Below, in pieces: positions 18,001 to 62,313 of a stretch of 64,000 bases of DNA. Numbering within the stretch: position 1 is the stretch's first letter; every line of letters begins with the position of its first letter. The stretch is from contig JAGWOI010000002.1 in NCBI GenBank assembly GCA_028870995.1, positions 110,463-174,462 of the forward strand, given 5' to 3'. This DNA is from Candidatus Omnitrophota bacterium (GTDB lineage Bacteria; Omnitrophota; Gorgyraeia; Zapsychrales; Fredricksoniimonadaceae). The notes beneath the pieces are model-generated. The model was not told the origin of the DNA. It ran no database searches and saw only the letters and a list, made by a program, of their open reading frames with translations. The translations under genes were made by a program, and so were the position numbers.

Positions 18001-21000
18001 CAGAGACAGCGCAAATAACCGCGAAATCAACCCAAGCCGCCATGCCTGAAACGCCGGCGGCGGCTGTTGCACAGCAGATCCTTAACAATATTCACAACCT
18101 CGCACCGCCGGTCCAGGAAGGCGATACAGTTGTTATCACGCTCTCCCAGCAGAAAGTCGAGAAGTCCCTGCAGTTTGAAGTTGCCAAAATACTCAAGAAT
18201 TCCATCGAAATCAAGGCCCAGAAACGCGACGGTACGATCACAACGGTGCCCGCCGATCAAATCACCATCCGCTTTGCCAGCGTACATGTTGATATTTCCA
18301 GAACAACCTTAAGAGACGCTGTTAAAGTGATCTTTGAAACCGCCTCCTATTCAAAAACATTTGAATTAATGGCCGATCAAATTTCTGTTGGGGCAAAGAA
18401 TGGCATGATCGCAAAGGCCGCGATTGGAACCGCTCTATTCTTTGTTGGTGTTGCGGACGTTCCTGCCGCCAGCAGGGTGTGGCACATGTTGGCTTCCTGG
18501 GATTGGGTGGACCGGACAGGTATTCTGGCGCTGGGTCTTTTAGGGTTTTACGTGACCTGCCTTATCGGCCATCATTTCTATGCTCAACGCCGCGACGAGC
18601 GCAATGAAGAACGCGACAAGCAGAAAAACGGAAACGATCTCATCGGCTTCTGCGGCAACGCCACCGATCCTGCCAAGCGCGCCTTTGCCCAGGGCATCAG
18701 GGAAGGCAAGATCAAAGAAACACGGATCGCGGGTTATAAGATCGACCGCCGCAGAGTTCCTGCCGAGTTGAAGCAGTTCTTCAACAAGACCGAAACGGAA
18801 TTTTATGAATTTGATTTCGACCGGATCATGGCCGATTTGCAAAGCGGTGCCCTGGACAAAGACACCTATGGTGCCATGAACGATCTTCAGGAAACCACCA
18901 TCTTTGCCACCGAACAGGCAGTCGACGGCAAGAAAAAGAAGATCATCAGGAAGGTTCATTTCTCCGCCATGGCCCGCAAAGTATTCGACGAGCTGTTCCC
19001 TGACGATAATCCGCAGGACAAGATGGTCGCCTGCACCAGCATCGATGTGCATGAGGCGGTTGAGCTCGATGGCACAAGTCATCCTCATGCCGTGGATTTG
19101 CAAAAGACGGTCAAGGGATACCGGGATAACGGGGTGGGCAGCCGCCTGGAGCGATTGCAGGATCTTGAGGTCGTTATCATCCCGATCGCCGACAACGGGA
19201 TCAAGGCCGAAAACGTTTACGGCCGTATTATTACCGAAGAGCGAAAAGGTTTCCCGCAGGAGAAGCTGGAACTGGCCTTTGCCGACCGCAACCTCACCCA
19301 TATTGTCGCGGCCATCCGCGAGATCGACAGCCACATTAGGAGAAACCCGCTGACCTGGCTGTTCCAGTCACGTCCCCATGAAGTGGCGGATATCATTGAG
19401 CAAGTCCACCAGGCGCTCATTAAGGAACAGGGGCGGATTTCGCCCACCACCAGCGTTCAGCAGTTGTTCGAAAATCTCATGAACGAAACCCTCAGCGATG
19501 ACCAAATCAAGAAGCTGGATGAGTGGGGCGTTGACGGTGCAGGGGAGGTGGTCAAGGTCAATAAGGGCGAAGGCACCATTCATGATCTTATCTACAAGAG
19601 CCTGGATGAAGGCGAAGGTCTGTATTTCATTCCGCTTATCGGCAATCCTTCGGCTGTTTATGAGACGGAGGTCAGGAGACTTTTGGGTGAGACTTCCCGC
19701 CCAGGCGCCCTTCCCCGTCCTGGAGCTCTTCAAACCATATTGAATCCCTTCCTGCGGGCTATCCGCCGCTCGAACCGTTCCATGGAATACGTGTACCAAT
19801 ATATGATCCAGGAAGAGCTTCCTTACCAGGCGGGCTTTGCCGGGGCCCTGACGAAGAATTCCTTTGGCGGGAAGCTGGATTTCCCCAAGATATTCGCCGC
19901 AGCGGCAGCCAAAGGGTACGTCATCGCCTTTGATCACCAAAAGATCAAAGGGTTTGTCAATCCCCGCTTCAATGGACTGGACGAGGAATTCAAGTCCATG
20001 GTCAGGACCGACCATCCGGAATATACCGAGGAGCAATTCATCCAGATCGAAGCCGTCTTTAGCCAGACCTTGAACTCCATGAAATGGGCTGAGGCCATGG
20101 TCTTTGACATCATGAAACATTGCGAAGCGTTCATTCAGAAGCAAGAAGAGAAGTTCAGGGAAATGAGGAAGGACGGCAAGACGATCTCCGACCTGCAGAA
20201 AAAGCCATTGGAAATGCATTCCGAGGCCCATAGCGTTTATGAGGAGATCGCCTGGGAGCTCATCATGGATTATTCCTACCGTTTCCAGGAATCGCGCGAA
20301 GTCATCCAGCAGCATATCGTCTCCGTCAAACTGGGCGCCATCCAGAATGTGATCAAAGATTTAATAGATTATATCAATGCCCGGGAGGGTATGAGCGTCT
20401 TGCCCGGTCTCATGAACGAGCAAGCGGCCCTGTACCTTGGCCTGGCCAGGCAGGCTGTCGAAAAAATCGTCAACGGGCAATCGGATTATTTGAGTTACCG
20501 CCGGGCCTTGAATGAGGCGGTGGACGCTGCCCTCAACGACGAGCAGTTTGAACGGGGGATATTGCCTCGCATGACGGTCATTTATGAGAGTTTTTATATC
20601 AACATAGCCGGAAAGGCCATTGCCCCCGATCAATTGGCCGATCAGGTCCGTCTGGAGAGCCGCCGCTATTTTGAGAACATAGCGGATTACATTGTCCAGG
20701 AAGCTGACCGCAGGATCCGCGAGAAGAGCGTCCAGATCGACGAAGACGCCAAGGTCATTATTTTGTTCGACCGGGTGCCTACACCGATCGAGTTTTCCAA
20801 CATACTGGGCTTTTACCGGCAGACCTTCCGGGGGGCGCTCAACTCCAAAGGATCGGTGAGGACTTCGCATTACAGCAACGTGGCCAAGAGCGCCCGCAAG
20901 CCGCTGTTGAATATCCGGCCTGAAGACAAAGGCAGTTTTAAGAAGAGGCAGCTGGTTTTGATCAGCCGGGGCAAGATTTATATTAATCCGGACCATGAAA

Positions 21001-24000
21001 CCAGACAACAGGCTCGTGCCGCCGAGAGGATGCAGAAAGCCTATGAGAGATATTGCCAGGTTTTGGCCAAAGGTTCTGCAGCGAAGGCGGGGGCCAATGC
21101 GGATACGGCTGAAGAGTTTAAGACGGCCGTAATCCAGTACGGTGCCGGCTTTATCGGCTTGCGCCGTTCTGAGAACGGCTACGAAACCATAGTGTTCCGT
21201 TCCAAACGCGAGCAGGAGATAAAGGACGAGGCCATGTACGAGAATGCCCAGGGCCGCAACAGCACGGCGCGATTTATCGATTACGCGTTTGCTAATGACA
21301 AAAAACCGCTGTGCCTTGAGCACATCGAATACAGCGGCGAGAAAGGCTGTTTGGAGCATCCCCTCGTCTGGGCCCTGGCCGTCGAACAGGCCGTCAGCTG
21401 GGGGAAAATCAGCAACAAGGAGACCGTGAAATCCTTCCGTGCCATGTTCCCCATGATCGAGACCGTCGAAGATTTTGACCGGGCCTTGGGCCTGGTGGCG
21501 GAAGCCATGAACTCCGCCGGATTGGATCCGCGCGGATTCATGAGGCAGATAGGCTCCATGCTCGAGACGCCGCAGGCCCTGGCCAACATGGAACTCCTGA
21601 TGCAAAAGGTGTTATTTTTCAGTGTCGGGACCAATGACCTTATCGCCAAACTGTATAAGGTCGACCGTTCCAATCCGAATCAAAGCGCCAGTTACTATAA
21701 GAACGTGCGGGTGTGGGCCACAACCCTGATCAGACAGGCCGTGGGCAAATCCAATGATGAGGGCGTTGACATTTCCATTTGCGGGGACTTGGCGGCCATG
21801 AAGAGATTCTGGTTTGTGTGGCACAACTGGGAAAGCCGCGGGTTCGAGGTGGGATTAAGCATGCCGGCGCCGATGATACCGGAATTCAAAGCCTGGATCA
21901 AGGTCCTCAAAGGGCTTGAATGTCCCGAACTGGATCAAATCAACCGGGCCATTGACCAGGCGCTTTGCGAAATGGAGGCCTTCCTGGCTGAAAACCACAC
22001 CAGGGAAGAGATACTGGCCAAGGATGGGGAACTCACCGAAAGACTTAATAAAACTTTTGACGAAACCCGTGTAGAGGAAAAACTGGAAAGGCTGATCCAT
22101 ATTAAGGCTTTAAGATGGACAGACAAGCAGGACGAGCAAACGCCGCAGGCCCGCCGGGTCTTAGGCTGGCTGCCCTACCTGCCGGCGCTGGTTTATCATC
22201 ACGGCTGGCGGGTGGTCCTGGCCCTGTTGCAATCCGATTATTACATTATCCGGGCATTCTTAAAGGTTTACGGAAAGTTTAAAGGCATCTTGAAATTCAT
22301 CGCTCACGGCGGGGTCGCCGCCTGGGCCAGTAATTTCGAACGCTCCCGCATATTGGAACAGATTCCCGACCTGCAGCGTCATGCCATCATCGCCCATGAG
22401 ATGACGCACCGACGTTGGTATGCACCGGAAGCAAAGGCTTACTTTGTAGAAGGGAAAATACTTTTGGAAGGTTTCACGGCACCCTTGAAGGCCGCCAAGA
22501 GCATTCTCCACGAACAAGTCATTCCTCTTTTAAACGAATCCCATTTGGAAGAACTGGCCACCGGCCAAGTGAGCCTGACCTATGATCCCAAGGTGCCGTA
22601 TACCGTCTTTTATATTACGCCCGATGTGCTGGCCATTAATTTGAAATGGCTGGAAAACGACGGCACCATCAACGCGTTAAGGACGACCTTCTTTTATCAC
22701 ATCATCTTGAATTATCTCGAGAATACCCCCGATAACGTGATCCGCAGATCGATGCATATGCCCGCAGGGTCCAGGGCCGGCGACAAATATTTCAGCGCCG
22801 GCGCCTTCGACAGTTCCTTCTTAAGAGACATCGACTTGCTGCTTATCGAGGACAGGTTGAAGAAAGTTTTGTCGGAACGCGCGGCGTACCGCCTCTCCTT
22901 CGACCGCGAGTTGATCGCCATCGGTATCCAGCGCCGTAATCGCGGTTCGTGGCGCAGGGTCAGGGGCAGGCCGTCGCGTACCGTGGTTTTGGAAATTGCG
23001 GCCCGGGCAGCCATTGCGGAGGCCACCGGATATGCCGTTGATGAAGACGAAGATCTAAAGAACCTGCTTGGCTATGCGCTCAGGCACAATGACAAGGAGT
23101 ATTTTCAACGCCTTAAAGAAGAATTGAAGAAGTTTTATTTGTCGATCGAATTCAATAATGAGTTTTCGCTGCGCGAAATATCATTGGAGGAATTCAGGAA
23201 GATGAATCCGCTGGCCAGGCTTGCCTATGTTTATTCCTACGAAGGGCTGGGGATCATTCCCCCGGGGATGACGGACAATTTACGTGCCGCGCTGGAAGCG
23301 GCCGGCCGCGTGCAGCACCAGTACCTGGGTCTTTTGGCCGAAATGCCCATGATCGTCTACCGGTGGGCCGAGATCGACAAAAGGGACCTCTTTGCCCTGG
23401 ATGCCATCAAGGCAGTTTTGAAAACCATGGGGGTCAATGACAAGGATGAGATCGACAGGCTGTCCACCAATATTTGGAAAGGCCAGTGGGACAATATCCG
23501 CCTCCAGGAAGAGGCCAGCCGGCTTCCGGGCTCTGATATCAAATCGGAATCGGAGATAGTTCCCTTTAAAACCACACGGCAGTTGCGCGAAACCTGGGAA
23601 TATTATTTTAATGCGGATAAAACTCCGGCGGAACGGGCGCAGGATTTCTATCGATTTTATAAGAACATCATCGATGCCATATTAAACGGCACCTGGACAC
23701 CGGAACTTTACAAAAAACTGTGGGAAGAAACCAAGAAAATCCTGGAGGAGTTTAGAAGCATGGCTCAAAGCGCGCCCGAAGGCAGCCTGAGTCAGGAGGA
23801 AAAGGCCAAGACCATATTGGAACGTATCTTTGCCGCCAAACCTTATGTGCCGGCTTCTTCGGGCCTGTTCTTTTTCAAATACATCCACGGCGGATTATCC
23901 ATTTTTGATATTTTCCCGCCCGATTCATACCTGAACAATATTTATTACACCTTGCGTGGGATCATCGAGAAAAAATCCACCCGGTTCGAAATATTGTTCC

Positions 24001-27000
24001 AGGCCTATGACATGCGCAGCCGCATGTTGTTCCTGAAACAGCACGGATGGGTGACGGACAAGCCTTATGAACAGCTGACCATTGAAGAGAAGTTGTATGT
24101 GGACGGCATTTATCAGCGGGTCAGCAAGAACGAGGTACAAAAAGCCAACCAGCGCTTGAGGGCTGCAGGGATGCCGGCCGACACCCGTGTGGTGGTCATG
24201 TATAAAATGATGGTTGAGGAACAAGACCGGCTGGTGGAAAAGGTGACCATCGAAAAGGGGCTCTCGCTGGGAGATTGGGCGCGAAGTTTGACTAATAAAG
24301 AAGTGGTTTACCCGCCGCATTTCGATCCGGAACATGTGCCGTCATCCAAGGTGCTCATCAACAGCGAGGAACTATTCAGGTACGTGCTTTACAGTCTTTT
24401 ACAGAAGTCCGGGACATCCCTCAGCAGGGAACAACAGGAATTGATCCGTGCGGTTGAAGCCAAAGAATCCTTTAGCGAGATGAAAAAGATAATACATCTT
24501 CCTAATGGTCCCAGGTCTGGTCCGTCGAATTCCGGCGGGACAGCTGCATCCAGTATCGCGGGCGCAGCCGTGTTGAAGGGAGGCTTGATCAAGGCGGGAG
24601 GAGCAGCAGCCGTTAAGGCAGGTCTGTCGGCCGTCCTTGTCTCTGCTGCCGCGCTTCTCGTGGCCGGCATGGGGGTTTTGGCCGTCTGGGGTATCAGGAA
24701 GTTTCTGGCCCGAAAACAAAATTCGGAGAATCCGAGTGTTCCGCAAGAGGCAGCTTTTGCCGCTCCTGCCGAAATCCCGCCGGCCTTGCGCCCGCGCAGC
24801 GCCAAGGAACAGTCCAAATTCGAACTTTCCCTGAAGCTTTTGCAGGACCTGAAGCATCCCACACGAGTTCTGTTCGTGGTGCCCATGTACAAAGAAATGA
24901 AGCGTTTAAGCCCTGAGGGTGAAGATGCGCTGCGCATGAAGGTGGCCCAGATGCTGTATTTAAAACAAAACAGCGTGTTTTTCGACGGCAGGCTGTTGTT
25001 CATCGACGATGGGACCCCGCAGATGGCTTCCCGTCAGGCCGTAGAACGGTTGTGGAACGAAATCCGCGGCGAGTATGCGGCCCAAGGCATGGTTCTTGAT
25101 GAAAAAATGGTCGAGGTCATGGAAGTGTCCGGGCAGGAGAAGAAAGCGACCGGAAGCCGCAAAGGTTACGCGGTCAAAAAGGCCATGCGCCGGGCGTTGG
25201 CGGAGGGCTGGGCACAGTTTATCGGCTATACTGATGTGGACATATCTACCAACCTGGTGCAGGTCCCGCTTTTGCTTTTCCCTCTGCTTTCCGGTCAGGC
25301 TGATGCCGCCATCGGCTCCCGCTATGCCGCTGACGCTGAATCCCGGGGCGTTTCCACGGAGCGGGTCAAGTCCTCCCGGCAATACCTTACGGCGGTGCAT
25401 ACCATCTTGCCGCCGTTGAAGGGGATTTCAGACACCCAGCGCGGCTTCAAATTATTCGACCGCGGCCTCCTCGAATTCATTCTCGCCTATTCGCATGACC
25501 AGAACGCCTTTAAATATGCCCAAGAACCGGGGCTTTCATTCGATACCGAGCTTTTGCTGTTGACCAAGCTGGCCAGGGGCAAGATCGCCGAAGTTTCCAT
25601 CGCCTGGTTCGATTCCGCTGAAGAAAGCACGATCAATCTCGGCAAGGACGCGTACAAGATGCTGCTGGGGGTCGTAAAGCAAGCCCGCTTATGGATCAAT
25701 CCAGTGACGGTGCTGCGCTTAAGGGAGTTCCACCGCAGCGGCCCGACTGCACCCGGCATCTTGACGACGCATTTCTGGGCCTGGGTGAAGGCAGAGATCG
25801 CCGCCGGACGCATGGTGGACATCATGCTTAAACCCGAAGTGATGGCCTGGGCCAAGCGGCCCGACGGAGAGACCTATCATGACTTTATTTTGCGCCGCTT
25901 AAAAGAGGAGGGATATGAATATTACCTCCTGCCGCAGCTTGACTTGGGTCTTCAAGGGGCATTCGAATTCTACGGCCGTGATCATCTTTGGGGCACGGGG
26001 GGCAAGCCTGCACCGAAATTGAACAAGCAGGGCAGCTGGTATCTGTTCGATGACATTCTTCCCTATATGGCCTCTGGACCGGTCAGGCCGGTGCTGGTCT
26101 ATCGCCGGCAAGGCATCAAGATAGAAGAATTAAAGACCGTGGTGATCGCCGGTATCCGCAAAGACCTTAACGCCGGGCTGGTTGAAAACAGGATCCACAG
26201 CGCCGACAGCATGGAAAGTGCCCAACAGGACATCAAGATCCTCTCCCAATATTACTTGAGGGATGCCGTTCATGTGCACAGCGCGCTCGATAAAATCTTT
26301 TTTAAGTACAGGACATTGATCGTTGCCGCGGACAAGGACAAGACCCTGACGGAATCTCATGAAGATTTGCCTCCGGGAACCGCGGCATTGATCGCCGGGA
26401 TCATCAAGTTGGGCGGTGCCTTTATTCTGGCCTCCGGATCAGGCATAGAGCGCCTGGAGAAGGAATTTATCAGCCAGCTGCGTGCAGCAATGGGCGGCGA
26501 GATCAAGGCTAACGACCTCCTTTATGTGATCTGTAACAACGGCTCTGCGGTTTATGAAATACGGCTGGCCGACGGCAGGCGCAAGAAAATTTATGAGGAC
26601 AACCTGGAAGAGATCGTAGGCAAGGGCAAGTTCCCGCTGGTTGAAAAGATCCTTAACGAATTTGTCAGCGAGCAGGAGGAAATAAGAACGCTTAAAATCA
26701 TGATGGAGGACCTTGAGGCCAAAGGCAAAATCAGCCGGGGCGCGTCCAGGCAGGTGAGGGTCACGCATTTGAGGGCCAATTTACAGATCCTGGGCGATCT
26801 GGGTGAAGAGTTTAAGGCGCTCCGGAATAATTTTGATCCACAACGCCAAAAACGCCAGCCCTGGGCCAGGATCATCCAGCAGCGATTGGATGAGGCCGGG
26901 ATACCGCTCAAGGCAGAGGTTTCCGGGACATCGACCATCAACATCCTGCCCAAGAACGTCAATAAGGGCAGCGGCATGATGCTGCTGCTCAAACATTTGA

Positions 27001-30000
27001 AGGCTGACAAGGAGCAGGTGGTTTATTTAGGAGATGAGTTCCTTGAAGACGGCAACGACCATGCGGCAGCGGCTCTCGGGATAGGGCTTACCATTAATGT
27101 GGGACATCGGGAGGCGGAAAAAATCCCGGAACCCTTCATCAATTCCACCATATTGGGTCCGAGAGCGGGCATAGAGTATCTGATGATCATCAGGGACGTC
27201 CTGCCCGCCGAGAAAATCTGGAGGCTGTCATGGCTGCGTAAATTTGCGGGAAGCCTGATGATCATCGTGATCTTGACCTTGAGCGCCGCCTCAGTCCAGG
27301 CAGCGGTGATCGATGATCTTATTGCCAGCCAAAATCCCCGCACAGGGATGGTCGTCAGTTATCAGGGGACAACCAACGCTTATAATATCAACCAGGCCTA
27401 TGCTTATGACAATGCCGAAGCGCTCGAGTCCATGCTGTCGGCAGGCAGGACCAACGAAGCCAAAAGATTGTTTTATGCCTTCTTTGATGTTTATAAGGAC
27501 AACGCAGTTAATTTTGACGGTTTCGATAATTCTTACAACGTTACCAATGGCGCTGTGGGCAATGAAAATTACCCGACGGCAGGGCCCAACCTGTATTGGG
27601 GGATCGCAGGCATCGATTATGCCGCAGCGATGCAGGACACCAACGGCATTGTCCTTGCCGAGGCTGTCTTTCATTGGACCCATGGGCTCAGGCATCTCAA
27701 CGGCGCCATTGCCTTCGGCAACAGCGGCATTTGGCCGGGGATTTTCTCGACAGAGCACAGTATCGATAATGTGGGTTTCCTGCGTAAATTCCTGCCGTTG
27801 GCCTCAGGCGTCGAGGCGGCGTCAGCCGAAAACGATCTAAATGCGGCGAGGAACTGGTTAAGCACCACGGCCTTTGACAGGGCAGCGGGCCTTTTCAACA
27901 GCGGCCTCAATGCCGCAGGCATCGACAATACCCGTGCGGCGGATACAACCAGCCTGTCCATTCTTCTTGGGACCGATGAGGTGCGCCGTTGGGGCATGGA
28001 TCCTGATGTGCTTTTTGCCAAAAGCGTTGTTGTTTTTGCCGCAGGAGACCGGGGATTTGATATTTCAGATGCGTTCAATGCCTTGCGCGTGCCGCGTGGC
28101 ATGTATCCCTTCGGCGAATTCACGGCCCAAATGTCCCAGGCGTATGCGTTGATGGCCCAGGATGCTTTGCAGCAAGGGCACGCCGCGCAGGCGGATCTTT
28201 ATGCCGTGGAGGCAGCCCGGTACCTCTATCTTTTGACGGCAACGAACACCTATCCGTATTGTCCCGCCGTTGGTATCCAGGTTTTTTGGAATAATCCTTC
28301 TTTTAAGACCGTTAACGGCAGATCCGCTGCCGTGATGGCAAGGATCGTTCAGTCGGCCGATGGGTATAACCCATTCGATGTGATGCCGTCCTTAAATCTG
28401 ACCGTGGGGATTTCGCAGAAGACCAATATTTTCCTTCAGATCATCCGCAATGATCCGCGGCTGATCAGAGGCGTGGTGCAATATTCGACAAATTTGATCG
28501 ATTGGTTGCCGTTGAGCACCAATAGCCTGTCCTCGCGGACCAATTCCTGGATGGACAAGAATGCCGTCAAACAGCATCCTAAAAAGTTTTACCGCGTCAC
28601 AGCGCCGCAGCCGCTATCGTCCAATAACTCCACCCTTCCTGTGACCATGGCCATGGCAGGAGCGGTTGTTCTCTGGAAGAGGCGAAAGATTTTGACGGCG
28701 CATGCTTATCCGGCCAGGGGAACGGATCGCGGCCCGACGGATCATCGGATAAAATCCGGAGAGGATGATAAGGGGGTGCCGATGGGCCTGGCCACCTTTG
28801 TCCCGACGGACTTGGCAGAAAGATACCGGTTTGCCGCGCAGGCCCATCAGCAGGACTTGGTACGCGAACTGCGGGAAAAATTCGGTGCGTATGGTTTCAC
28901 ACGATTGGTTTATCCGGCGGCGGGCGGCGATCACATGACGGTATTGTCTGCCTTAAGGATCTGGCCGAACATCGAGGAATTGCATTTCATTGACCCCGTG
29001 CTGGATGAGCAGTCGATCAGGCAATGGCAGGACAATCTCGAGACCCAAGGCGGTCTTTGGGGCCTTGCCGACGTGCCGGAGGCGACCTTCATCACCGGGG
29101 ATTATAGAGCTAATCCGCCGCTTGGCCCCACCACGGGACGAACCTTATTTATCGATAAAACTCCCGGACAGAAAGGGTGCTTAAGGCAGGACCCGCAGTG
29201 GGTGAAGGCCCTTTTGAGGGATGCCCGTGCCGGAGACGCCATATTATCGCTGAATATTATTTCGAATCCGGTGTTAAATATCGCTGGTGTACAGCTGGGG
29301 CCGCTGACCTTGCCGCATGACTATGATCATCAACAGCAATGGTGGTTGACCCGATTGCCTGCGGCAGTGGAGAAGAATGGCTATAACGGGTTTAAGTTCA
29401 GGCGGGGATATAACGGACCTGCGGTATTGCCTGGTGTGCTGGATGATAAGTCAAGGCCGTGGCTGCTGGCCCAAGGCTCCTGGGGCAAGGTGGAAAGAAC
29501 ATCAGGATCGAGCCTTACCGAAGAAGAACTGGCGGAAATCAATGCCCAATTGACCAGGCAGAGACAGGCCCTGCTGCAGGATGCCGTATTCCGGGAGTCA
29601 CAACTGTGCATCGTTTCGCCAGCCCGTACTGCCGCCCACTTTGAAACCCGCGGCAGGCAAGTGCCCCGCATCGCTCTCGACACCCGGACCTTTATCAATC
29701 CTGATCTCTTGCGGATAGTTCTAAGTCATGAATTCAAGGATTTATATTACCAGGCAAAGTATCCCCAAATCCCCATGATCGTCAGGGAAATGCTCAGTCA
29801 TCTGACGGTTGATGTCCGGGAATTCATGGCGCTGGTGACCAAAGACCGCCGCCGGGCCCGAAAACTCCTCGAGGATTACCGCCAATTAGCCGATGTCAAC
29901 GGCATGTACAGGATCTATTCCCTTATTTACAACAACCGCTATGAAGGGCCGCTGGGCCTGGCCGGGGAGGTTTATTACATGCTGACCCGTGAGCCGCTTT

Positions 30001-33000
30001 ATTTCCAGAGCCAGCGTGAAGCCATGGCCAAACTTTCCCTCTCCCAGGTGCTGGCGCATGAAATTTTCAAGAAGGAAATCCAGGCCGGGAGCATACGATT
30101 CAATGACCAAGACCAGGGAGAGATGGGCTTTACAAAGGATATACCCGTTACCGAAAGACCGCGTAAAGCATTCTCTTGGGGCAGGCCATGGCAGGAGCCT
30201 GAAGGACGCCAGATGGATCTGGGCCTGGATATTAAATCTTTTACAGGGTTCTTGCTTCTTATGGCCGCAAGCCTTTCGTTGACCGGCTGCAGCAGTCATC
30301 ACGCAGCAGCCGCTGTGGCCGACCTTGCGGCGGGCGTCATGATGGCCGTCGCAGGGACCCTGTTTTCCATGACGGTCTTGCTGCGTCCCCAATCCCGCTT
30401 TATGAAATGGCTGCTGACCGTATCAACCACACGTTGGCACGACCGGTTTAAGATGAGGTTGTTTGAATGGATTTCCCTGGGCCTGCCTTCCATCAAAAAA
30501 CATTTGCAGATCAACATCGTTTTGCCTGGCTCCGCGTCTTTAAGAGCAAACCATGCTGTTTCGCTGCCGCCGGACGTGGCCATGAAAACGCTGGCCATGA
30601 AAGAATCCCAGGAAAATATTTTGCGGATACAACAAAAAGGCTGGGCCCTGAATAATTTTACGGGAGTGCTCCATCCGCAGAATCCTCAAATGCAGCGGGG
30701 ATTGGAATCAGCGACAGCTGGAGATCTGCAGGGCGAGGGGAATCAATACATGCCCGGGACGGCCGAGGCACCGGTGGTTTTGACCTTTGACGGGAAAAAG
30801 ATATGGCAACGCCTGCCATTAAACGGACGTTCAGAGCTTGCACCGGGCAGCGTTGTTTATGCCGTTTGGCATCACCCGAAAGACCCGAATCAATACATGG
30901 AAGGCGTTTTGTCCTTGCAAGATGACAGCCGGAATAAGGTCATCCCCAGGGTACATGAGGGCAGTTGGGAAATCCTCACCGCCCATGACCACCAGGACTA
31001 TGTGAGACTGCGCCCCAACTTGCTGGCCGTGGTTCCGGTCACCGACGTCTACCATAGACAGAGACAGGCGGTGGGTGCTTTTCAAGGAAGCCACGGAGTA
31101 TTTTTGTTGGGGCCTGGCCTGGATCGCCGGGAAGCACTGGAGCGCATGACCAGGGGGCTGGTCCTGGCGGGAATCCTCGGTGAGAGCGGCAAGCTGATTG
31201 TCAGCAGCCGCCGGCAAAGCGACAACACCGACATATCCACTATCCAGGAGGCGGCACTGGCCTGTGCCGGCACCGTAAGGCAAAAGGAAATTTTCACTAT
31301 TGGCCGTAACGGCGACACCATATCCGGAAACGGCGCCGGGCCCATTAAAGGCCTGTGGGTTTGGTTCAACAATCCGCATGCGCGTAAGATTTATTTCGAA
31401 GGCAAGAGAATCGATTCGTTGAGAATTTGCCTGTTCGGCTTTCCGGGCGAACCCCTGGCCCACCTGGTTTCCGGCGCCTACAGCCAGTTTTCCGTTACAG
31501 GGCTTATCGGCCTCTCGGATGCCGACGGTTCCTTCAGCGAACTGGCGGCAACTCAGGCCGGAAGGCTTTCTTCCGGACTTTGCCAGGTTCTGGCCCAACG
31601 GCCCATTCCTTTAAAACCCGAAGGGTTAATAAACCTGTTGGAACGCTACAAGCAGGCGGTCGATTATTATGCCTCCCAAGGCGGACGGTTGGGCGACGCC
31701 TTAAAGCAGGCGGATGCCGTTATCGCGGGAGGGAAACAGGGATCCTTCAGCCGCGATTACGCGGAGAAATTCGCCGGGTACATTGTTGTCGAGTCATCGC
31801 CCGGCGCTATCACGGCGGAGGCCAGGGACCATTTGCTGGCCAAGGGCATTTTTGTATTGGGTAACTCTGTCGTTGAGATCGGGCCGTCCCTGGCAGCCAA
31901 AACAGGGTATATCAGCGCCAAAAAAGGGACAGCGGCTCCCCCCGAAATGCTTTTGCAGGACAGGATGTTCTTTGAAATGATGGTCCGGCTCATGAACGAC
32001 CTTGAAGCTGCCGCCAGGAAGTTTGATAAGACACCGACGGAATTTGGGCAAGCCTATCAGGACATCGTTCTTCAGGGGGAAGAGTCTTTTAATAAGACAA
32101 TAACCCAGTTGAGCGGGGCTTCGGTCGCCGCCTTGCGGTCGCTGGCTTTGGTCAAAGGCGATGCTCCGCTATGGAATAACCGGACCTACGAGGCGCTTTT
32201 GGCCCTGCGCCGGTGGGACGTGCTCGATCAGTCCATGCAAACCCTGGCTGCCGTCCGCCAGAGGATAAAGATCCTGGTCGGGGAGCAGCGGGAAGGCATA
32301 GTGTTTGTTGATCTGGCCGCGGCCCGGGAAGATGAAGCCAAGATCGAAAAAAGGATCCCTGAAGAAAAGAAAGATTATGAAAAAGACCTTAATGGACTGC
32401 CTCCTTCCCTGCGGTCAGGGTTTGAGACGTTCCTGGCCGGGATCAAGGGGACACCGGAATTAAGGGTCTTGAAGCGTCTGGCCTACAATATTTTTATCGT
32501 GAACCTGCCGTTTAACCTGGCGTTCCACTTCGCTGTTTATGACGAGGCCTACCGCGGCAGGCTGTTGTCCTACCGTTCTCAAGATCAATGGATGGAACTT
32601 TTAATGCGCTGTTCTCAGGAAACCAAACCGTTGGATACCATTAATGCCATCTTTGCCCTCTCTCACCTGGAGCTTCCGCCGGCCATAAGGGGAGAGATCG
32701 TTTCCATGATGGACCAGATGTTCTCCTTGAGCCTGAGGGCTGATCCGGTCAGCAAAAGCCTTTCGACCAGCGCCTTAAAGACATTAAGCGTTTCCCAAGC
32801 CATCGTGGTGACCAACAAGGAAAGGACAGAGCGCCTCCTTAACGCGGTTTGCATGATGGCTCTGGAAAGGATGAACATTACCTCGGCGGGTGACACGCTC
32901 CTCAATCAGATGGCCAATTACAGCCAAATGGATGTGACCGTGCAGAAGTGGTTTGAATTTGCGTTGAGCCAGTATAGTCCGCCCTGGCGGGAGCTTTATG

Positions 33001-36000
33001 ATGAGGCGTACGAAAAGATCGAGCGCTGGCGCGGCTATTTCAGGATGCAGGGCTGGCTTGACGATGAAGGGTTCCATCCTGAGAAGGCGGCGCATGGGAG
33101 CAAAATACAGTCAGATTTTGTCACGGCGGCCGGCGATTTCCGTTCCTGTGCGGTCTTAAGCGAGATGTGGGCCCGGACCCTGGAAGAGCACGCCGGAACT
33201 CCCGAATGCCCGGAAAGGACGCGAAAACACCTGTTGGAATCGGCCCAGGCCCTCAAGAGGCAAAAGCAGCGGCACTATGAATTTGCCGCACGCCTGGCCG
33301 ATGCTTCACGCCTGGAAGGGACCGTGCTGGCCATGTTTCGCCCCAAAGAGGCCTGGCCGCTTTGGATGAAGGCCGGGGACATGCGCCAGGCGCGTCTGGC
33401 CCTCTCTTCCATGATTTCCTGGCGCGAGGCAGGCAAACGTTGTGCCAAACAAGAGGTGCCGGACGGCCAGGCCCCTTGTCTGGTCAACCTGGCGCAATAT
33501 GTCACAAGGCCCAACGTGCTTACGCATACTTTTATGGGCATCTTCATGACCAACAGCCTGACACAGAACCATCAAACTGATATGGCCGAGGTTTACGATA
33601 CATCTTTTGATTTGGGAAGCACGCTGTCACGGTATGTCAATGAGCACCGCGAATTCATGGAAGGGGTCATCACGCGCGAATCGTTGAATAAGCTCGGCGC
33701 AGAGGCGTTCCTGCAATTGACCGACGGGCAGAATGGCCTTCTAAAGGCGGTTTCACCCGGCCTGCTGCGTTTCCGCAAGGAAATGAACCAGGTCTCTCTG
33801 GGACAAATGCGTGAGGTCTTTGGCGGCCAATATGAAGACGTCCTGGCAGCTTTGAACCAAAAGCAGGCGTCCTTGACCCTGGAAGAAAAGACACCTGTCG
33901 CCCGGGCCATTATCGCGGACTTTGCCGCCTCTTCGCACCGGCTGGCCCTGCTGAACAACAGCATTTATCTTGAGCACGAACGCCTGTATGTGTGGGTCCT
34001 TCTTAGTGTTTTCGGGCTCTATTTTACCGATGAGAGGATGGACCGTTTTGTGCGCAACATGGTCGTCAGCGGCCAAGGCGGGGGCATTTCGGGGCAGGAC
34101 ATGCAGGCCCATGTGGCTGCCGTCGAAAAAACGATGGACCTGGAGCTGGGCAGGAGCCAGGCCTTTATGACGGCCGGGACCGAAGCCATGAGGCTGTGGC
34201 TCTCGAGCAAGGTCCATGAAATCAAACAGGGATTCAGCTGCGGGATGGGGACGGTTGAGGGCAACAGCATGAGCAAGCAAGCTGAACACCTGACCCGCCA
34301 GGCACTAAGCGACGGGAAATTGGTAAGATTCAATGAATTCAAGCCTGCGACTCCGGGGCCTTATGACCCCCTCGCTGCCGCACTTCTGGAAGACGAGCGG
34401 GTGCGGCTATTTATCCCCGCTGTGAGCCTTGATGGCCGCGGCCCGCCGTATCTTTGGTTTAAATCAAAAGAACATTTCCTGGTTTCCTGTGTCCTGGACG
34501 GCCATATCATAGTTCCTGTAGGCCTTCTGGATAATCCGCATTTACTGGAAGTTTTGCGTTTTGAGATGGCCAATCTTATTTCCGGTGAAGAGACCGTCCG
34601 GGAATCTGCGCTGTTGGCAAGCAAGGTTTTATCATCCGCGGCCGGTGATTTCACCGGCAGGACTGATTTGGACCGGCGGATCATCCAGCGTGTCCGGCAG
34701 TTGGAACGAAATTTTCGGCGTCAAAAGGCGGCTGACGCCAATACGCCAACCATCTTGAACTATATTTTCTCGCGGACCCGTTATAAGAAGGGCCGTTTTG
34801 TCGTCCATCCTCTTGAAAAATTAAAGGGACATACCCGCACGCACCGCCTCCGAGGTTCTGATTCAAGCCCGAGGCCGTACATGCCGGGCGAGGCGATTGA
34901 GTTTCTGGAAGAGGAGATCATTGCGCGTCTTCAGATTTTGGGCATGGAGGCGGACATCGTGGTGAATGCCAATCCGGCGGCCGAAGGCCATTTTATGATC
35001 ATGCCCCGGCGCGGCGCGCATTTGCCCCAGTATCTTGACAGCCCCGAATACTTGAAGGCGGCTTTAACTATTTTAAGATCTTCACGGCGTAAAAATTTAA
35101 AGATCACGTTCGGCAGTAAGTACACGGCTTCCATCGACCACCTGCATTTTAATGCTTTTTATTATGGCGGGGCCGGGTTGGGGCTGGGTTTATTCTGGCC
35201 TTTGTTTAACGCGGGCAAGCTTCCTGCGGAGAAGGCGGCCCGGCAGGTTTTATTTGAACGCCGGACAGTGACAGTCATGGGCCTGGAAGATTATCCGGTC
35301 AAGGGTCTTGTCTTTTCATCGCAGGACGACGCTGCCCTGACCGAGGAGATATTTAACTATATTCAAATCCTGAACCGTCGCAAGATCGCCTATAACCTGT
35401 TGATGACGAAAAGCGGCACCTATGTATTTGTCATGAACGGCAACCGGGTCAACCGGTTCCACATGAAGATCACCTCCATTGCCGTGGCCGGAGAATATAC
35501 GATGCGGTCCCATCACAGGCGAGGCCTGATGGAGAAGGACATTGCCGGGGATTTAATGGGCTTTTCCGTTGACGGCAAAACGTTCGATGAAACGGCCGAA
35601 GAGCTGGCCCATGGACCCCAAGACCGCACGTTTAAAAGACGCGTTGATTTGAAATTCCTGGTCACTGAAGAAGAGGCCCAAAGGTTCCGCGGCGTTATTT
35701 TAGCCCAGGGAATGTTGCTGGATGAATACTGTGCAAGGGGGCCTTATTTTATTGACAGTGTTTATTGGGACAGCCCTGAGTGGCGGCTTTGGCATGAGGA
35801 AGACGGAGGGAACGCGGGTGTTCCCAAGTTGAGGATGCGTTCCTATGATTCAAGGCATGTTTTATTTTTTGAGATCAACGAACGCAGCCAGGCGAACGTT
35901 AAAACAAAACAACGCACGCCGGTGACACCCGCGGGGGCGCGGGCTGTCTTTAACGGCGAACTGCCGGGCGATGATGATATTTTGGCCGAAGACAAGGCCC

Positions 36001-39000
36001 AGGGACGGGCGGCGCTGGGAGTGTTTGTGCAATTGGTTAAAGAGAAGGCTCTTGAGCCCAGGGTCCGGATTTCTTATCTGAGGGAGGCCTATTTATCGGC
36101 GGATGATGCCTTAAGGATAAGTTTTGACCGCCGGGTGAGCGCTGCCTTTGAAAAAGAACCTTTGGCTGCTGCGGAGCCGGGAACCCTGGTGGACATCTAC
36201 AGCCCCAAGGTCGTGGTGGAGATTAAATTTAAAGAGGAGCTTCCAGAGTGGGTTTCTTCGCAAATAACACGGCCGTTAAATTTAGCGCCCCAAGAAGTGC
36301 ATAAATTTTTGGACGCGGTGAGAAAATTACGCGCAGATCCTGCGCCGCTCGCCCTGCTCCTTCCCACTGCAGAGAATAAGAGCGATCTGGCTGTCCTGCT
36401 GTCCTTAAAGGATTCAAGGGCCCTGCTCGAGTTTTTATACGAGAAAGCCCGTCAAGAGAGGGACATCATCATGAGGGAAGGGTCATCGGGCCTTGCCCTG
36501 CGCCACACGGAGGCTTTCGACGGAAAAAAATGGGTTGTGACCACACCCGCGCAGCGGCTGGCGATGATGTATGAAATGGACAGGTGGAACGATCCTGTGG
36601 AGGACCACGTCCAATGGCAGATGAATGTCTTTGGCCCCATTCTTGATGAATGGGCGGAAGGCAAATTCGGCAGCCGCGGAGAAGGAAATTTTGCCGAACT
36701 CATGACCCTGGGAACAAGATGGACTCCGGAGATCAGCGGTCAAATGATAAGGCTGCAGGAGCTTTTGGAGAAGGCCGTAGAGGCGGATGAAGCGCAGAGA
36801 CGGAGATTCGAAGATTTGCTGGCCTATGTGCAATTAGAACGCAAACAAGGGGACGGCTTCCTCGATCTCGATGATCCCGCAGCCAGATTCGATGAAGAGC
36901 TGGATATTTCCGTGGCGGCGGACAGGGTTTTAGAAAGTTTTCTGGCCTCTGTCCAAAACCCTCACGCCATCGGAGAGGTTGTGGACATATATGATGAAAT
37001 TGATTTCATGAACCACCCGTCCTTGCGCGCCTATATCCAAAAACTTGTCAGTGGCGCCTTACAATTGACCCGGCGGCGTCCTGGGCGAGCCCCAATACAT
37101 CCGTCTGACAGCAAAGACCATGCCGCCAATGGTGCGACCCGAACACAAGTTGTCAAAGAATTGATGCGGTTGAGGGGGCTGCCGCCGGGCTGGAGGTGGA
37201 ACAAAATACCTTCAGGCGGCAAGGAAATCGACAAGGGCGTCAAGCTGTACCTGCAGTTGACCGGGAAAAAACGATTGGCCCCTTCCTGTGAAGTCATTTT
37301 TCTGCGCGCGCCTCCCCAAAGCCGTTACAGAGCATTTTGGCTGGACGAATTCCCCGGGCATATCGATATTTATTTAAGGCAGGACGCCACCGGCTGGGAC
37401 GTGGCCCACGAATTACTGGCGGCCTTTGAGAACACCACCCACTCACAAAATGAATTCTTCTGCAACGATGGCCATTCGATGGCATATCGGCGGCTTGTCT
37501 TTGATATCCTTCGTCCGTATGTATCCCGCTGTCCCGTTGATCACAGTGCCGCAACAATTGAACTCCAACTCAATACACTCAAGATGCAGGCCAAGGCTTT
37601 GCTGGCGCATCGTGAAAATCCCGGCAACGAGCACTGGAGCAAATTTTTACTGGCGGTGACCCAATATCTCAGGACTGATCCATATGATTTTGTTCTCTAT
37701 CTGATGCAGAAAGATCCCCAGCAGGCATTGTCGGGGAAAGCCGGGGATACGCCCAAGGTATTTTTGGCAAGAGTCCTGGCAAATGTCGCTGACAGGCTTG
37801 CTGTTTTGATCGTCCGTTACCGGGACCTGTCAAACCGCTTTCTCTATGGCAGCCTCAAAGCGGAAGAGAAAGAACACCTTTTCAGCCTGGCCGCAAACAT
37901 CCTTGATTATGCACCGCCAACGGAAGAGGAAACTCCTGTCCCAGAGGCCTTTCAGGTCCCATCCAAGGCACAGATTCAGGGGGCGGCTGTAAAGCTAGAA
38001 AAAGAAATATGGGATCTGATGGCCAGGCCGTTGAATGAAAAGGCTTACGGCAGGATGGTCCTCCTTTATCAGCAATCGGAAGAATTGAGAAAGCCGTTGA
38101 AAATGCCGCCGGAGTCTAGGGCGCTGCCTGCCTGGGTCAACATTCGAAAATTGCTAGAGGAAGACGATATCATCCCGGCCCTTGACCTCATGCTTTTGCC
38201 CGAGGCAGCTTTAAGTAAAACCAAAACGCAAAAAATGAAGGCGGTATGGGATGAGGCGGCTGAAAGAGTTATTGCTAAGTCGGATAGCCTGACCAAGGCC
38301 AACCGTAAGAAGGAAGCGCGCGAGATTTTACAAAAGGCAGAACGACTGTTGGTTTCCACCGAAGTTTATCCGGTTTACCAAAATCTTGCCCAAGAACTGC
38401 TTGCTCTCATCAATCAAAAACATCCCAGCGCCTTGAAGGCGCAGAGACTGCTGGAGGAGCACGCCGCTTATTGGTCAGATAACCGTATTGCCAAACAATT
38501 CCTCGAGGCCATGGCCGCCGAACGGCCGTATGGGAACATGGATAAGCTGCCCAAGCAATTGGCCCATATGTCGGGCTACCTGGTGGGGGAATTGGAAGGA
38601 TTAATTGCAGAATATGAGAAACTTTACCGCCCCTTGAGCATGACGCCGGAAAGCCAGAAGCAGTTCAAGATTTGGCAGGCCGAACACCCGGATCCGGGCG
38701 ACGAAGAATTGTGGGAAGAGCTGTACGGCCTGGCCCTGGTGGAAGAAAAAGATCTGCCTTACTCAAGCCGCGATCATTATGAGGTGCTTGAAAAAGTCTT
38801 TGAAACGCATCCCAAGGTTTTGAACGCTCAAACAGGTCAATCAGAGGATTTCGACGAGCAAAAGCACGGCAGGGACCTGGGGGGCGGTATTTATTTGCGG
38901 CTCATGAAGTACAGCATGGCCCATGATAGCGTTCTGCGCCTACTGATGCAGGGAACAAGGGGTCCTGCTTGTTCTCCCGACATCTCGCTGTTCCTTTGGT

Positions 39001-42000
39001 ATGCCCATGAAAGGGGCCTTATAGCCGCCGCTGAAGCCCATGCCGATATTAATTTTGAGGCGATTAAAGGCCGCAACGGATACCTGTCCATGACGACGGG
39101 TGAAGATAAGCAGTGGAAAGCCGGCCGCCCTGCGGTGCCGGATGTGTTGGGAATGTTGTACGACGAACAGGCGCCAACCATCGAGGCGCTTTTGAACAGC
39201 GGGTCGGCATACTTAAGGAGCATCGCCCTGGAGTTTATCGACGAGGCGGTGGTGAAGGAAGAAACTTCCTATGTTAGAGAAGACGGCCGCCGCCGCAGCC
39301 GGCTGTGGGTCTTGTTGAAACACCGCAAGGTGCTGGTTTACGACAACGCCCGCTGGAGGTGGTCCTTTATCCTTTGGGCGCCGCATCCTTTTAAAACCAT
39401 CCGTCAATTATGGCACCAGGCCACCAATAGCCTTAAGGCCTACGGACGGGGCTACCGTTTGAGTCAGGACCATTATCCGGGCCGTCTTGATCTGGCCATC
39501 AAGAGCGGTTTGAGCAAGGCCGTCGAAGGTCATTGGGAATTCGACTGCTCCGCAGTTAAGCGCAGCCGGGTCGATGGCCTCAGCCAGGTTCCCGATGTGC
39601 TGGGCCTGCCTTATGAGGCCCGCCGGCTCCCTGGGGGAAGGGACCTTTTGGCAAAGCAGCCCCTGAATGCCCTCTCGACGATGTTTATTTCGCAGGTCAA
39701 GGTTTTTACGATCATGGGTAAGCCGGGCGGCGGCAAGGGAGAATTGTCCAGGTGGATCATTAAACAGCTCAATGAATTGCTGCCCGAAGGGCGCGGGTAT
39801 GAAACCTTTGTCCTGGGGGATTATTTCAGGGGCATCAAGAGGGTCAAGATGGACCCCGCTTCAGCCAGTGCCCAAGACCTGAAAAAGTATGGGCCCTTTG
39901 TTTCGCTGGTGACTGAAGAGGACCTGGCCCGGATGAAGGAGCGCCAATTGATCAGCGACCAGACGGTCATTAACATCATCACGGCCGTCTTGGAAACAGA
40001 GCCCTATAAGAACGCCTTTGGGTTGTTCCTCGACGGGTTCCCTAGGAATTTGGAGCAGGCCAGGCTTCCTTTGGAGAAAATTACCTGGCGGGGCGCGCCC
40101 CTGGCCATTGATCTATATGTTTATCTGGACATACCTAATGAAAAGAACGCTGTTTTCTATGAACGGGCCAGCCATCGAAAGGCCCAGGCGGTCCTCAACA
40201 ACGAAAAGCCGCGTGAAGATGACGAGCCGGAAACAGTGGCCAAAGGGTTAAAGACCTTTGATGAGGAAACCCGTCCGGGTATCGAGTATGTCTTGACCCA
40301 ATTTGCAGGAAAATCATTTAAGATGCAGGGCACGACGGAAGGGATGCGTGAGGACAGCATTGCCATGGACAGGGTCAATTTCATGGCCGGCTGGGCAGAA
40401 CATTTGGAGCGCCACCACAAGCGCCCCGTTATTCTGGCCCTGCCGTTCTTGCCGGCCATACAACAGGTCATGGACCAGGGATTAAGGACGTCAGATGCCC
40501 GCAGGAATTGGGACGCCATCCGGAGGGCAACGAACCTGGAATTGCGATGGGCTTTTAAGCGGGGCTCTCCCATGCCGGAAGAGGAGTTTATCAAGGCGCA
40601 TCAGGAAGTATTTGATGTGGGCCTTCGCACATGGCGCAAACCCCGTCAGGAGGAGCTTGAGGCGATCAGGCTGATGTACAGGGAAGCTTGCCGTACCTAC
40701 GACAATCATTATTGGGCCTATTTGGGTGACATCGCGCCCGGGCCGGGCTTGGTCGGCTATTTAAGGGAAAAAGGCGGGGAAGCGCATAAGCTGGCGCTTG
40801 TCGAAGCAGGTAAAATATTTTTTAAATTTCAAGCCGAGGCTTGGAAAAACCGGCAGGGCATTTTGGCGCTGCCGCCCATCCCAACGGCGATGAGTGAGGA
40901 ATTCCGGCCGGCAGGGTTAAACTTGTTGGCCCAGCATGCGCAGCTCAAGCCGCAGGCGTTCACTCAAGACTTCATTCATTCGATTCCCTCAAAGCACTGG
41001 CAGCTCTTGGACATTTATTATGGCCTTCATCAGGCGCCTGTCGCTGAGTTAAGAACTATCCATAAAAAATTACGCTCCAAAGGAATGGCTTACGGCAATT
41101 TCCGCTGGATCGCCATGATGCGCCGGTGGGTGGTCAAGAATTTGAAGAAAGTGCGGATCGGCCGTCAACAGCTGGCCTCCTTGCTTAAAACGGATGTTAA
41201 GAAAATCACCGCTGACATGATCGAGGGTTTGCCTGAAACCCATAAGACGGTCATCCGTATTAATTTTGGTATAGGCGTGCACCGGCCTTTGCAAAAAAAT
41301 TTGCTTCAAGAGGTCAGAAAGGCCCTGAAGAACGAAAAACTGACCATTGAGCAGCTGGATACCTTGCGTCAGGAAGCCGTTGAGCGTCTTGACTGGGCTG
41401 TTAGATACGGGCTTCATCAGAAATTTTATAAAAATGCGCCTGCACGGCTGCAAAGGAAAGCTCCGGTCAATAACAGCGGCCTGGAAGTACTGGCCTACGA
41501 TTTAAATATATCCGCAGTGCCATTGACCGAAGAAGTTTTACAGCAGCGGTTGAATATGATCGCTCCCAGGGCCAGGGAAGCGGTGGTCCAATATTATTGT
41601 TTGGACGGCCGGCAGCGGACATTGATGCAGATAAGCCGTCATATGGCATCTAAACGGTTCCGGGACCTGCGCAGCAATCCGTCGGCACTGACGATTCCGA
41701 ATCTGAGCCTTTTGGTCAAAAATGCGGTGAACCACATGAGGCGTTATAAGGGAGGGTTTGACTGGCTGACCCAGGAACTTAGGCTTACTCCTGAAAGGGT
41801 GCGGTCCAATTGGATGAAACTTGCCATCCATGAGGCGGCGGCATTGATTCTGCATTACGGGATCGGCACACCGCGGTTGGCGGATGATGCAGCCATAGCC
41901 GCTTTCTTTGAAAGAAATAAAATATCCGGCCTGCAGCGCACGGTCAGCACGCATGAAATAAGGCACTTGCGCATCAAGGCCAAAGAACGGCTGACCGGTG

Positions 42001-60093: not shown

Positions 60094-62313
<2,220 letters not shown>

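Follow-up and report, generated by a model that had tools for sequence, protein, structure and literature searches.

Divergent phosphate- and nucleotide-handling enzyme domains in a giant protein of Candidatus Omnitrophota

Linked phosphotransfer enzymes are known from the multiphosphoryl transfer proteins of the phosphotransferase system (PTS; fused HPr, EI and EIIA) and from the anchored adenylate kinase (ADK) and nucleoside diphosphate kinase (NDK) phosphotransfer networks of eukaryotic flagella. For Omnitrophota, a "multi-enzyme metabolic cluster" class of giant proteins has been described, whose members contain sugar-metabolism and kinase/phosphotransferase clusters as well as HIT domains and are mostly membrane-anchored; these giant proteins are mosaic and mostly singletons (bioRxiv 10.64898/2026.06.07.730766). 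The Archaeovorins carry glycosyltransferases, methyltransferases and NUDIX domains (bioRxiv 10.1101/2023.11.21.568195). Adenylate kinase, VTC, NDK and domains utilising phosphoenolpyruvate (PEP) are not mentioned in the main texts of these two papers, and PF00406, PF02896, PF09359, PF00334, PF09830 and PF16269 are absent from one supplement of the former. For the giant proteins of Omnitrophota, annotation fails over most of the sequence. Here we analyze a stretch of 64,000 nucleotides from a Candidatus Omnitrophota bacterium (contig JAGWOI010000002.1; hereafter the window), which contains a single uninterrupted open reading frame (ORF) for a protein of 14,397 amino acids. The ORF is complete in the window, and its translation has one terminal stop. 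As judged from profile and motif comparisons, this giant protein carries a run of divergent, mostly intact phosphate- or nucleotide-handling enzyme domains, which are small, coherent modules that can each be expressed and assayed separately.

Seven modules and their active sites

Seven divergent modules were recognized along aa 6,890-13,420 of the giant protein: an Enzyme-I-like (EI-like), a GT2-like, an NDK-like, a HAD-IIB, a HIT-like, a VTC and an ADK-like module (Table 1). The spacing between modules is 1,000-4,000 residues; the HIT-like and VTC domains are directly fused (the latter begins 12 residues past the former), and the GT2-like, NDK-like and HAD-IIB modules are packed into one compact block with a strong predicted transmembrane (TM) helix on either side (nt 24618-27311, aa 8194-9091). 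A first-pass annotation of the sequence had proposed that four phosphate-handling modules (EI-like, HIT-like, VTC and ADK-like) reside in one polypeptide. Indeed, all four are encoded in the 43-kb ORF, with their motifs at the places given there; the three modules of the compact block were absent from its list. All recognizable domains are confined to aa 6,893-13,423. Pfam scans of the N-terminal ~6,800 and the C-terminal ~800 amino acids gave no matches, a PDB sequence search with aa 3,700-8,260 and 9,050-13,300 gave no match other than EI, and a search of the 14,397 residues for internal repeats found none. As the remainder of the protein is without Pfam matches, essentially each recognizable domain is predicted to act on phosphate esters or anhydrides, which makes the original observation stronger than first stated.

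Table 1. Positions of the giant ORF, its modules and the predicted TM segments around them (nucleotide positions are those of the window).
Feature	Residues (aa)	Nucleotides	Strand	Basis
Giant ORF		39-43232	+	ORF list and translation; no internal repeats
EI-like PEP-utilising module	6893-7298	20715-21932	+	PF02896, TIGR01417, PDB EI, PtsI profile, AF2/Foldseek
Predicted TM helix	8194-8219	24618-24695	+	Kyte-Doolittle 2.53; followed by RKFLARK
GT2-like glycosyltransferase	8253-8558	24795-25712	+	Transitive homology; DDG, DVD and GSR motifs
NDK-like domain (probable)	8590-8745	25806-26273	+	Weak concordant matches
HAD-IIB hydrolase/phosphomutase-like domain	8762-9020	26322-27098	+	Pfam Hydrolase_3, TIGR01484
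Predicted TM helix	9069-9091	27243-27311	+	Kyte-Doolittle 2.31; positive flank N-terminal
Two adjacent hydrophobic segments	10067-10094 (lipobox-like LTGC) and 10096-10115	30237-30383	+	Hydrophobicity scan
HIT-superfamily domain, GDP-hexose phosphorylase (GGP/GDPGP1)/Apa2 branch	~11544-11856	~34668-35606	+	HMMER relatives and profile
VTC/triphosphate-tunnel domain	11868-12095	35640-36323	+	PF09359, E 5e-28
ADK-like domain, short LID	13224-13423	~39708-40307	+	Pfam ADK, TIGR01351

As the first-pass annotation had proposed, the EI-like module joins a swivel domain with the phospho-His (H6944, nt 20868) to a TIM barrel of the PEP-binding type (C7248, nt 21780). Pfam PEP-utilizers_C (PF02896) matches aa 7003-7263 (E 4e-27), phmmer against the PDB retrieves PTS Enzyme I (E 1e-14) with the RTSH motif (H6944) aligned to the phospho-His of EI, and positions 151-554 of a PtsI profile built from homologues align to the whole module (E 3e-40). 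The catalytic residues are all kept (H6944, R7043, R7078, E7176, N7199/D7200, R7210, C7248). An AlphaFold2 (AF2) model based on 26 homologues had a pLDDT of 78 (about 85-95 in the barrel), and its best Foldseek match in the PDB was phosphorylated EI (2hwg, TM 0.74). Furthermore, TIGR01417 matches with E 1e-23, but with 83.5 bits against a cut-off of 341.7, and this match begins at model position 155. The phospho-His swivel family PF00391 was not reported by hmmscan of the module, and PEP-utilisers_N (PF05524), the HPr-binding helical subdomain, was not detected in Pfam at E<=5. No HPr or EII domains turned up in the giant protein or among the ten ORFs scanned in its neighbourhood, nor did Pfam, NCBIfam and PDB searches reveal an acceptor domain, HPr-like, ATP-grasp or other, near the module.

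In sequence and fold, the PEP module is thus nearer to EI than to PPDK or PEP synthase, and it shares with PTS Enzyme I (PtsI/PtsP) the TSH swivel domain and the PEP TIM barrel with its full catalytic set. However, with its score at about one quarter of the equivalog cut-off, its undetected PEP-utilisers_N, no HPr found and its embedding in a giant membrane protein, it is by these comparisons an EI-like core and not a PtsI orthologue. Note that a long-query phmmer search weakly extended the alignment to residue 75 of E. coli EI, which points to a possible remnant of the helical EIN part at nt 20517-20714 (aa 6827-6892); the envelope of the PtsI profile likewise begins just upstream of the core, at aa 6828. 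An identity of the module as PPDK or PEP synthase was considered and rejected, since the EI models of NCBIfam rank far above those of PEP synthase and PPDK, EI structures score far better, and a nucleotide-binding ATP-grasp domain is lacking.

The P-loop domain, which the first-pass annotation had placed at nt ~39,690-40,280, is adenylate-kinase-like. Pfam ADK (PF00406) matches with E 7e-13 (49.3 bits, gathering threshold 26.8), and positions 3-190 of the 212 in TIGR01351 align with E 4e-15 (56 bits, cut-off 168); a PDB search with this segment matched more than 60 adenylate kinases. The Lys of the P-loop GKPGGGKGE is kept (K13233), and T15 is replaced by Glu. The NMP-site Arg, DGFPR and the R-x-DD of the short LID are all present, with the equivalents of R36, R88, Q92, R156 and the DD pair kept; R167 is replaced by Lys.

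The domain annotated at nt ~35,600-36,260 as VTC-like was confirmed as well, with a Pfam score of 98.6 bits (gathering threshold 23). A four-sequence VTC profile matches the tunnel domain of yeast Vtc4 best (3g3q, E 6e-15), and inactive Vtc2 (E 7e-4) and Vtc3 score worse. The nearest homologues are stand-alone bacterial VTC-domain proteins with 30% identity. According to the cryo-EM study of the VTC complex (bioRxiv 10.1101/2023.01.27.525886), nine residues of Vtc4 are triphosphate/Mn ligands (K200, R264, R266, K281, Y359, R361, E426, S457, K458), and the K281A exchange impairs the enzyme. Seven of the nine have kept equivalents here (K200, R264, R266, Y359, R361, E426, K458), among them K458, the residue that separates active Vtc4 from Vtc2 and Vtc3, whereas K281 is replaced by Asn and S457 by His; in addition, the equivalent of R280 is Ile. 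In the bacterial VTC homologues, S457 is not conserved, and K281 is. The domain hence resembles yeast Vtc4 and the bacterial stand-alone proteins in belonging to the VTC/TTM fold family and in most of its ligands, and differs from them in the loss of R280 and K281, in having neither an SPX domain nor a Vtc1-type channel, and in its fusion to a HIT-type phosphorylase. The gene for the nearest stand-alone homologue (P0158, L081/L082 6001-6879) is located directly upstream of genes for a P-type cation ATPase and a HAD-like protein, with a 4-nt overlap with the ATPase gene.

The HIT-like domain required more sensitive comparisons. The segment alone gave only E 0.23 with Pfam HIT and no significant phmmer match in the PDB. 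However, scanning 1.84 billion representatives in full with HMMER yielded 119 relatives at E<=1e-3 (best E 7e-41), nearly all of which possess HLHFQ(A/G)(Y/F). Among 43 short relatives, Pfam recognizes ATP_transf in 5, DUF4922 in 4 and HIT in 1. With a profile of the relatives, yeast Ap4A phosphorylase Apa2 (4i5t) is matched along its entire length (E 5.5e-7), and the domain's series of motifs, NxxPxxxGH / LPQ / S...ASI-x-HLHF / YPV-x-G-x-VF, agrees with the motifs of plant GDP-L-galactose phosphorylase (GGP) printed in PMC11222470. By these comparisons the domain is real, a member of the GalT/Apa2/GGP branch of the HIT superfamily. The extent suggested in the first-pass annotation (nt ~34,900-35,190) was too small (see Table 1). 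We rejected an assignment to canonical HIT proteins of the Hint/Fhit type, as the relatives, the Apa2 profile match and the plant GGP motifs favour the GGP/Apa2 branch.

The active-site motif of the HIT-like domain reads H11701-L-H11703-F-N11705 in place of HxHxQ, i.e., both His residues including the nucleophile H11703 are kept. It departs from the family at three near-invariant sites (N->G at 11692, N->D at 11700, Q/H->N at 11705), and an Asn equivalent to N11705 occurs in 0 of 43 aligned relatives. Compared with GGP/GDPGP1 and Apa2, it shares the two-lobed HIT-like architecture, the motif series up to the HLHF element and the nucleophile His; it is unlike them in having HxHxN for HxHxQ/H, in the exchanges N->G and N->D at two phosphate-binding positions, in lacking a direct Pfam match above threshold and in its location within a giant protein.

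In sum, among the Pfam families named in the first-pass annotation, PF02896, PF00406 and PF09359 match significantly, whereas PF00391 was not reported and the Pfam HIT model reached E 0.23. Of the catalytic residues it had singled out, the TSH His, the Cys and the P-loop Lys are kept, as are most of the VTC tunnel Lys and Arg, with R280 and K281 replaced.

In the compact block, the HAD-IIB domain is recognized directly (Pfam Hydrolase_3, E 1e-11; TIGR01484 for HAD-SF-IIB, 52.7 bits with a cut-off of 41.8). It has DKDKT at aa 8765-8769 (nucleophile D8765) and GDEFLEDGND at aa 8998-9007, fitting GDxxxxxGND, and its best PDB relative is alpha-phosphoglucomutase (4bnd, E 2e-7). The assignment of the GT2-like module is transitive: the segment itself has no direct Pfam match (weak AglJ match, E 0.006), but it is homologous to aa 63-390 of the long protein P0019 (E 2e-62) and to ORFs in the metagenome loci L083-L087 (E 1e-46 to 1e-57), and the homologues in P0019 and L083-L086 match Pfam Glycos_transf_2. 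The segment between these two modules is probably NDK-like, as three weak, concordant matches each align the catalytic-His motif. These are Pfam NDK (PF00334; E 0.024, 14.9 bits and hence below the cut-off of 27), NF001908 (E 0.0016) and Mimivirus NDK 3fbb (E 0.0024, with the motif ENRIHSADSMESA aligned). K8598 and the equivalent of the catalytic His (H8720, NRIHSADSMESA) are present, and the Kpn-loop region is shortened. An AF2 model of this segment from the single sequence had a pLDDT of 44 and was not used.

Relatives, membrane topology and genomic context

The giant protein appears to be nearly unique at the sequence level. A word-index search for homologues of the HIT+VTC segment gave no match at E<=1e-3, and pattern scans of genome and metagenome contigs with this segment found no relatives. 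Only the GT2-like module had clear homologues among other giant ORFs from metagenomes. The giant ORFs of L083-L086 have this module in common with the protein described here and contain none of the phosphotransfer modules; its partners in the GT2-sharing giant ORFs are glycogen debranching enzyme, 4-alpha-glucanotransferase, HATPase_c, transglutaminase, methyltransferase and sigma-70 region 4. The order and adjacency of the modules are not conserved among relatives. The small number of homologues and their differing partners agree with the published picture of mosaic singletons (bioRxiv 10.64898/2026.06.07.730766).

Nevertheless, domain matches indicate that subsets of this toolkit recur in other long proteins, where they are found together with sugar-nucleotide enzymes. 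P0009 has a HIT-like, a HAD and an EI-like domain, P0004 contains UDP-glucose pyrophosphorylase (UDPGP) and a HIT-like domain, P0036 a ROK sugar kinase and a HIT-like domain, P0019 a GT2, a HIT-like domain and a methyltransferase, and in P0112 a series of ADK, fucose-pyrophosphorylase-like and HIT-like domains occurs twice. Note that the duplicated cassette of P0112 ends in a PHP-like DLHTHT motif. The NCBI names of P0004, P0009 and one member of the P0036 cluster are Candidatus Omnitrophota. The first-pass annotation knew the combination of modules from no characterised protein. The PEP-utilising, ADK, VTC and NDK domains go unmentioned in the main texts on these protein classes; however, the recurring subsets and the giant proteins with kinase/phosphotransferase and HIT content described before give the combination some precedent.

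The membrane topology was assessed from charge-free hydrophobic stretches on the Kyte-Doolittle scale, which is a crude predictor. About 26 such segments are present in the giant protein. Approximately 16 of these TM candidates are located in aa 3685-6183 (the "membrane block"), further candidates lie between the modules (aa 8194-8219, 9069-9091, 10067-10115), and three are near the C-terminus. By the positive-inside rule, the GT2-NDK-HAD block would be cytoplasmic. With strict alternation of the predicted helices, the EI-like module or the HIT-VTC-ADK stretch would come to lie on the opposite face from this block. The hydrophobic region at aa 10067-10115 could be one TM helix or a hairpin, and this choice decides the face of the HIT-VTC-ADK stretch. 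The first-pass annotation had placed its four modules on the cytoplasmic side of the membrane block; the predicted helices neither bear this out nor contradict it. Topology predictions for other giant proteins were likewise implausible (West-Roberts et al., bioRxiv 10.1101/2023.11.21.568195).

The window is of Omnitrophota origin. Its GlmS, for which an exact-sequence look-up gave no record, shares 85% identity with the GlmS of an Omnitrophota metagenome-assembled genome (MAG), and the best ~25 matches are nearly all from Omnitrophota MAGs or unresolved "Planctomycetales" bins. With at least 10,000 amino acids, five to seven distinct enzyme families, no dominant repeat and predicted membrane anchoring, the protein is, by its sequence features, a new example of the described multi-enzyme giant-protein class of this phylum. 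Housekeeping genes are located downstream of the giant ORF: mutL and mutS (- strand), followed by trmB and genes for a D-Ala-D-Ala carboxypeptidase, a dsbA-like protein and a GT2/PMT fusion, glmS and rsmI. Between mutS and trmB there is an ORF for 284 amino acids (48060-48914, +) without a Pfam match. Also downstream of the giant ORF, a 736-aa ORF (60094-62304, -) encodes a collagen triple-helix repeat (Pfam E 3e-58); it is overlapped by several long shadow ORFs on both strands, as expected of GXY-repeat DNA. A search of the window for tRNA genes found none. Within the giant protein, two sub-threshold Pfam matches were seen outside the modules, Ntox50 (bacterial toxin 50; E 0.0044, nt ~5313-5516, aa ~1759-1826) and DUF7863 (E 9e-4, nt ~23628-23762, aa ~7864-7908).

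What the modules may do

We regard it as an even chance (probability about 0.5) that the modules are autonomous, membrane-tethered enzymes that serve nucleotide-sugar and nucleoside triphosphate (NTP) turnover next to a glycosyltransferase. The nucleotide-sugar theme is suggested by the partners of the modules, namely GT2 and HAD-IIB in this protein and UDPGP, fucose-pyrophosphorylase-like and ROK domains elsewhere. In such a scheme, the interconversion of sugar phosphates and nucleoside diphosphate (NDP)-sugars would fall to the HAD-IIB domain and the HIT phosphorylase, the GT2 would use up NDP-sugar, and NDK and ADK would recycle the NDP and nucleoside monophosphate released. The EI-like and VTC modules would tie this pool to PEP and tri-/polyphosphate, in a manner that the scheme leaves undefined. 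The looser proposal of the first-pass annotation, an energy- or nucleotide-handling unit on a membrane machine, also fits the data, whereas the self-contained relay proposed alongside it is not supported (see below).

Several points weigh against autonomous enzymes of nucleotide-sugar and NTP turnover. Every module scores far below equivalog cut-offs, there are substitutions near the active sites (HxHxN for HxHxQ, T15->E in ADK, K281->N in VTC), and support for the NDK assignment is weak. As searches turned up no acceptor for the EI-like module, its proposed part in the scheme is vague. The nucleotide-sugar theme itself is an argument from association, drawn within a protein family of mosaic make-up. 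Finally, strict alternation of the TM helices would place some nucleotide-dependent modules outside the cell.

Divergence of this degree could also mean that the modules are pseudo-enzymes, i.e., degenerate relics retained as non-catalytic nucleotide-, phosphate- or sugar-binding or structural modules. This would fit the low scores (83 bits versus 342 for TIGR01417, 56 versus 168 for TIGR01351), the deviations of the HIT-like domain at three near-invariant sites with an Asn unseen in the family at the Q/H position, the replaced P-loop Thr of the ADK, the NDK match under the Pfam cut-off and the VTC domain without equivalents of R280 and K281, the latter being required for full Vtc4 function (bioRxiv 10.1101/2023.01.27.525886). 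However, nucleophiles and most catalytic or ligand residues are kept in all six modules at an overall identity of 20-30%, and such retention suggests purifying selection on the active sites. We therefore consider pseudo-enzymes unlikely.

The first-pass annotation had suggested a relay in which phosphate is directed from PEP via a phosphoprotein to nucleotides or polyphosphate, or an energy buffer. In this case, PEP would phosphorylate H6944, the phosphate would be passed in cis to other modules (the His of the NDK-like domain, nucleotides, or polyphosphate via VTC), ADK would equilibrate the adenylates, and the whole would act as the power supply of a giant membrane machine. PEP, ADK, NDK and polyphosphate are classical parts of cellular phosphotransfer networks. 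Four enzymes with covalent intermediates occur in this single chain, HIT and VTC are directly fused, and the EI-like module has its catalytic residues intact, with PEP-utilisers_N and an HPr-like domain undetected. Nonetheless, we found no direct support for the relay and consider it improbable: the modules are 1,000-4,000 residues apart with predicted TM helices between them, their order and adjacency are not conserved in relatives, and each is from a family whose members act singly on soluble substrates. Moreover, diffusion is not limiting in ultra-small cells, and the partner domains indicate sugar-nucleotide metabolism. To our knowledge, there is no precedent for the transfer of phosphate from the phospho-His of EI to NDP or polyphosphate. 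What keeps the relay in consideration is an EI-like module without a detectable HPr-binding part and without an identified acceptor.

A related and quite improbable variant is a tethered network in which an HPr-independent EI-like module would capture the phosphate of PEP and, together with the NDK-like, ADK-like and Vtc4-like modules, would regenerate NTPs or make or use polyphosphate locally, powering or feeding the giant protein, possibly at the contact to a host or prey. If true, this would be a self-powered giant protein, which is unprecedented in bacteria. We give the same low credence to the giant ORF encoding a polyprotein that is cleaved into separate enzymes, so that the fusion would signify co-expression only; processing by C39 or S8 peptidases has been suggested for other giant proteins (bioRxiv 10.1101/2023.11.21.568195), but Pfam scans detected no peptidase domain in this one. 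Least probable of all is that part of the enzyme string acts outside the cell or is delivered into a host or prey, where it would convert PEP, nucleotides and NDP-sugars of the prey: although with alternating helices one or more of the module blocks would face outwards, and the giant proteins of Omnitrophota have been tied to predation, with most of their domains predicted to be extracellular by predictions that were themselves called unreliable (bioRxiv 10.1101/2023.11.21.568195), the substrates are cytoplasmic metabolites, Pfam scans found no secretion/translocation domain in the giant protein, the TM prediction is crude, and the positive-inside rule sets the GT2-NDK-HAD block in the cytoplasm.

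Comparison with known systems

Membrane-tethered enzymes of nucleotide-sugar and NTP turnover would be the first link of giant proteins to PEP, nucleotide or polyphosphate chemistry. If the modules are active, giant proteins would bring energy and nucleotide-sugar metabolism of the housekeeping type to the membrane, besides adhesion or lytic functions. Two of the modules are unusual in their own right, the fusion of a Vtc4-like domain to a HIT phosphorylase and the EI core without a detectable HPr-binding part.

As in the multiphosphoryl proteins of the PTS and the flagellar ADK-NDK networks, several phosphotransfer modules are held in one polypeptide or structure. However, the partners in those systems are known to pass phosphate on or to serve a defined ATPase, whereas any such coupling in the giant protein is hypothetical. 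With the multi-enzyme giants of Omnitrophota and the Archaeovorins it has in common the host phylum, a length above 10,000 amino acids, many TM helices and long Pfam-free stretches, as well as diverse enzymes (sugar metabolism, kinase/phosphotransferase, HAD, glycosyltransferase, HIT), no dominant repeat and a mosaic, poorly conserved organization. It is unlike them in that the scans recognized no SecA-like, methyltransferase or peptidase domain in it and that its recognizable domains are almost exclusively phosphate- or nucleotide-handling.

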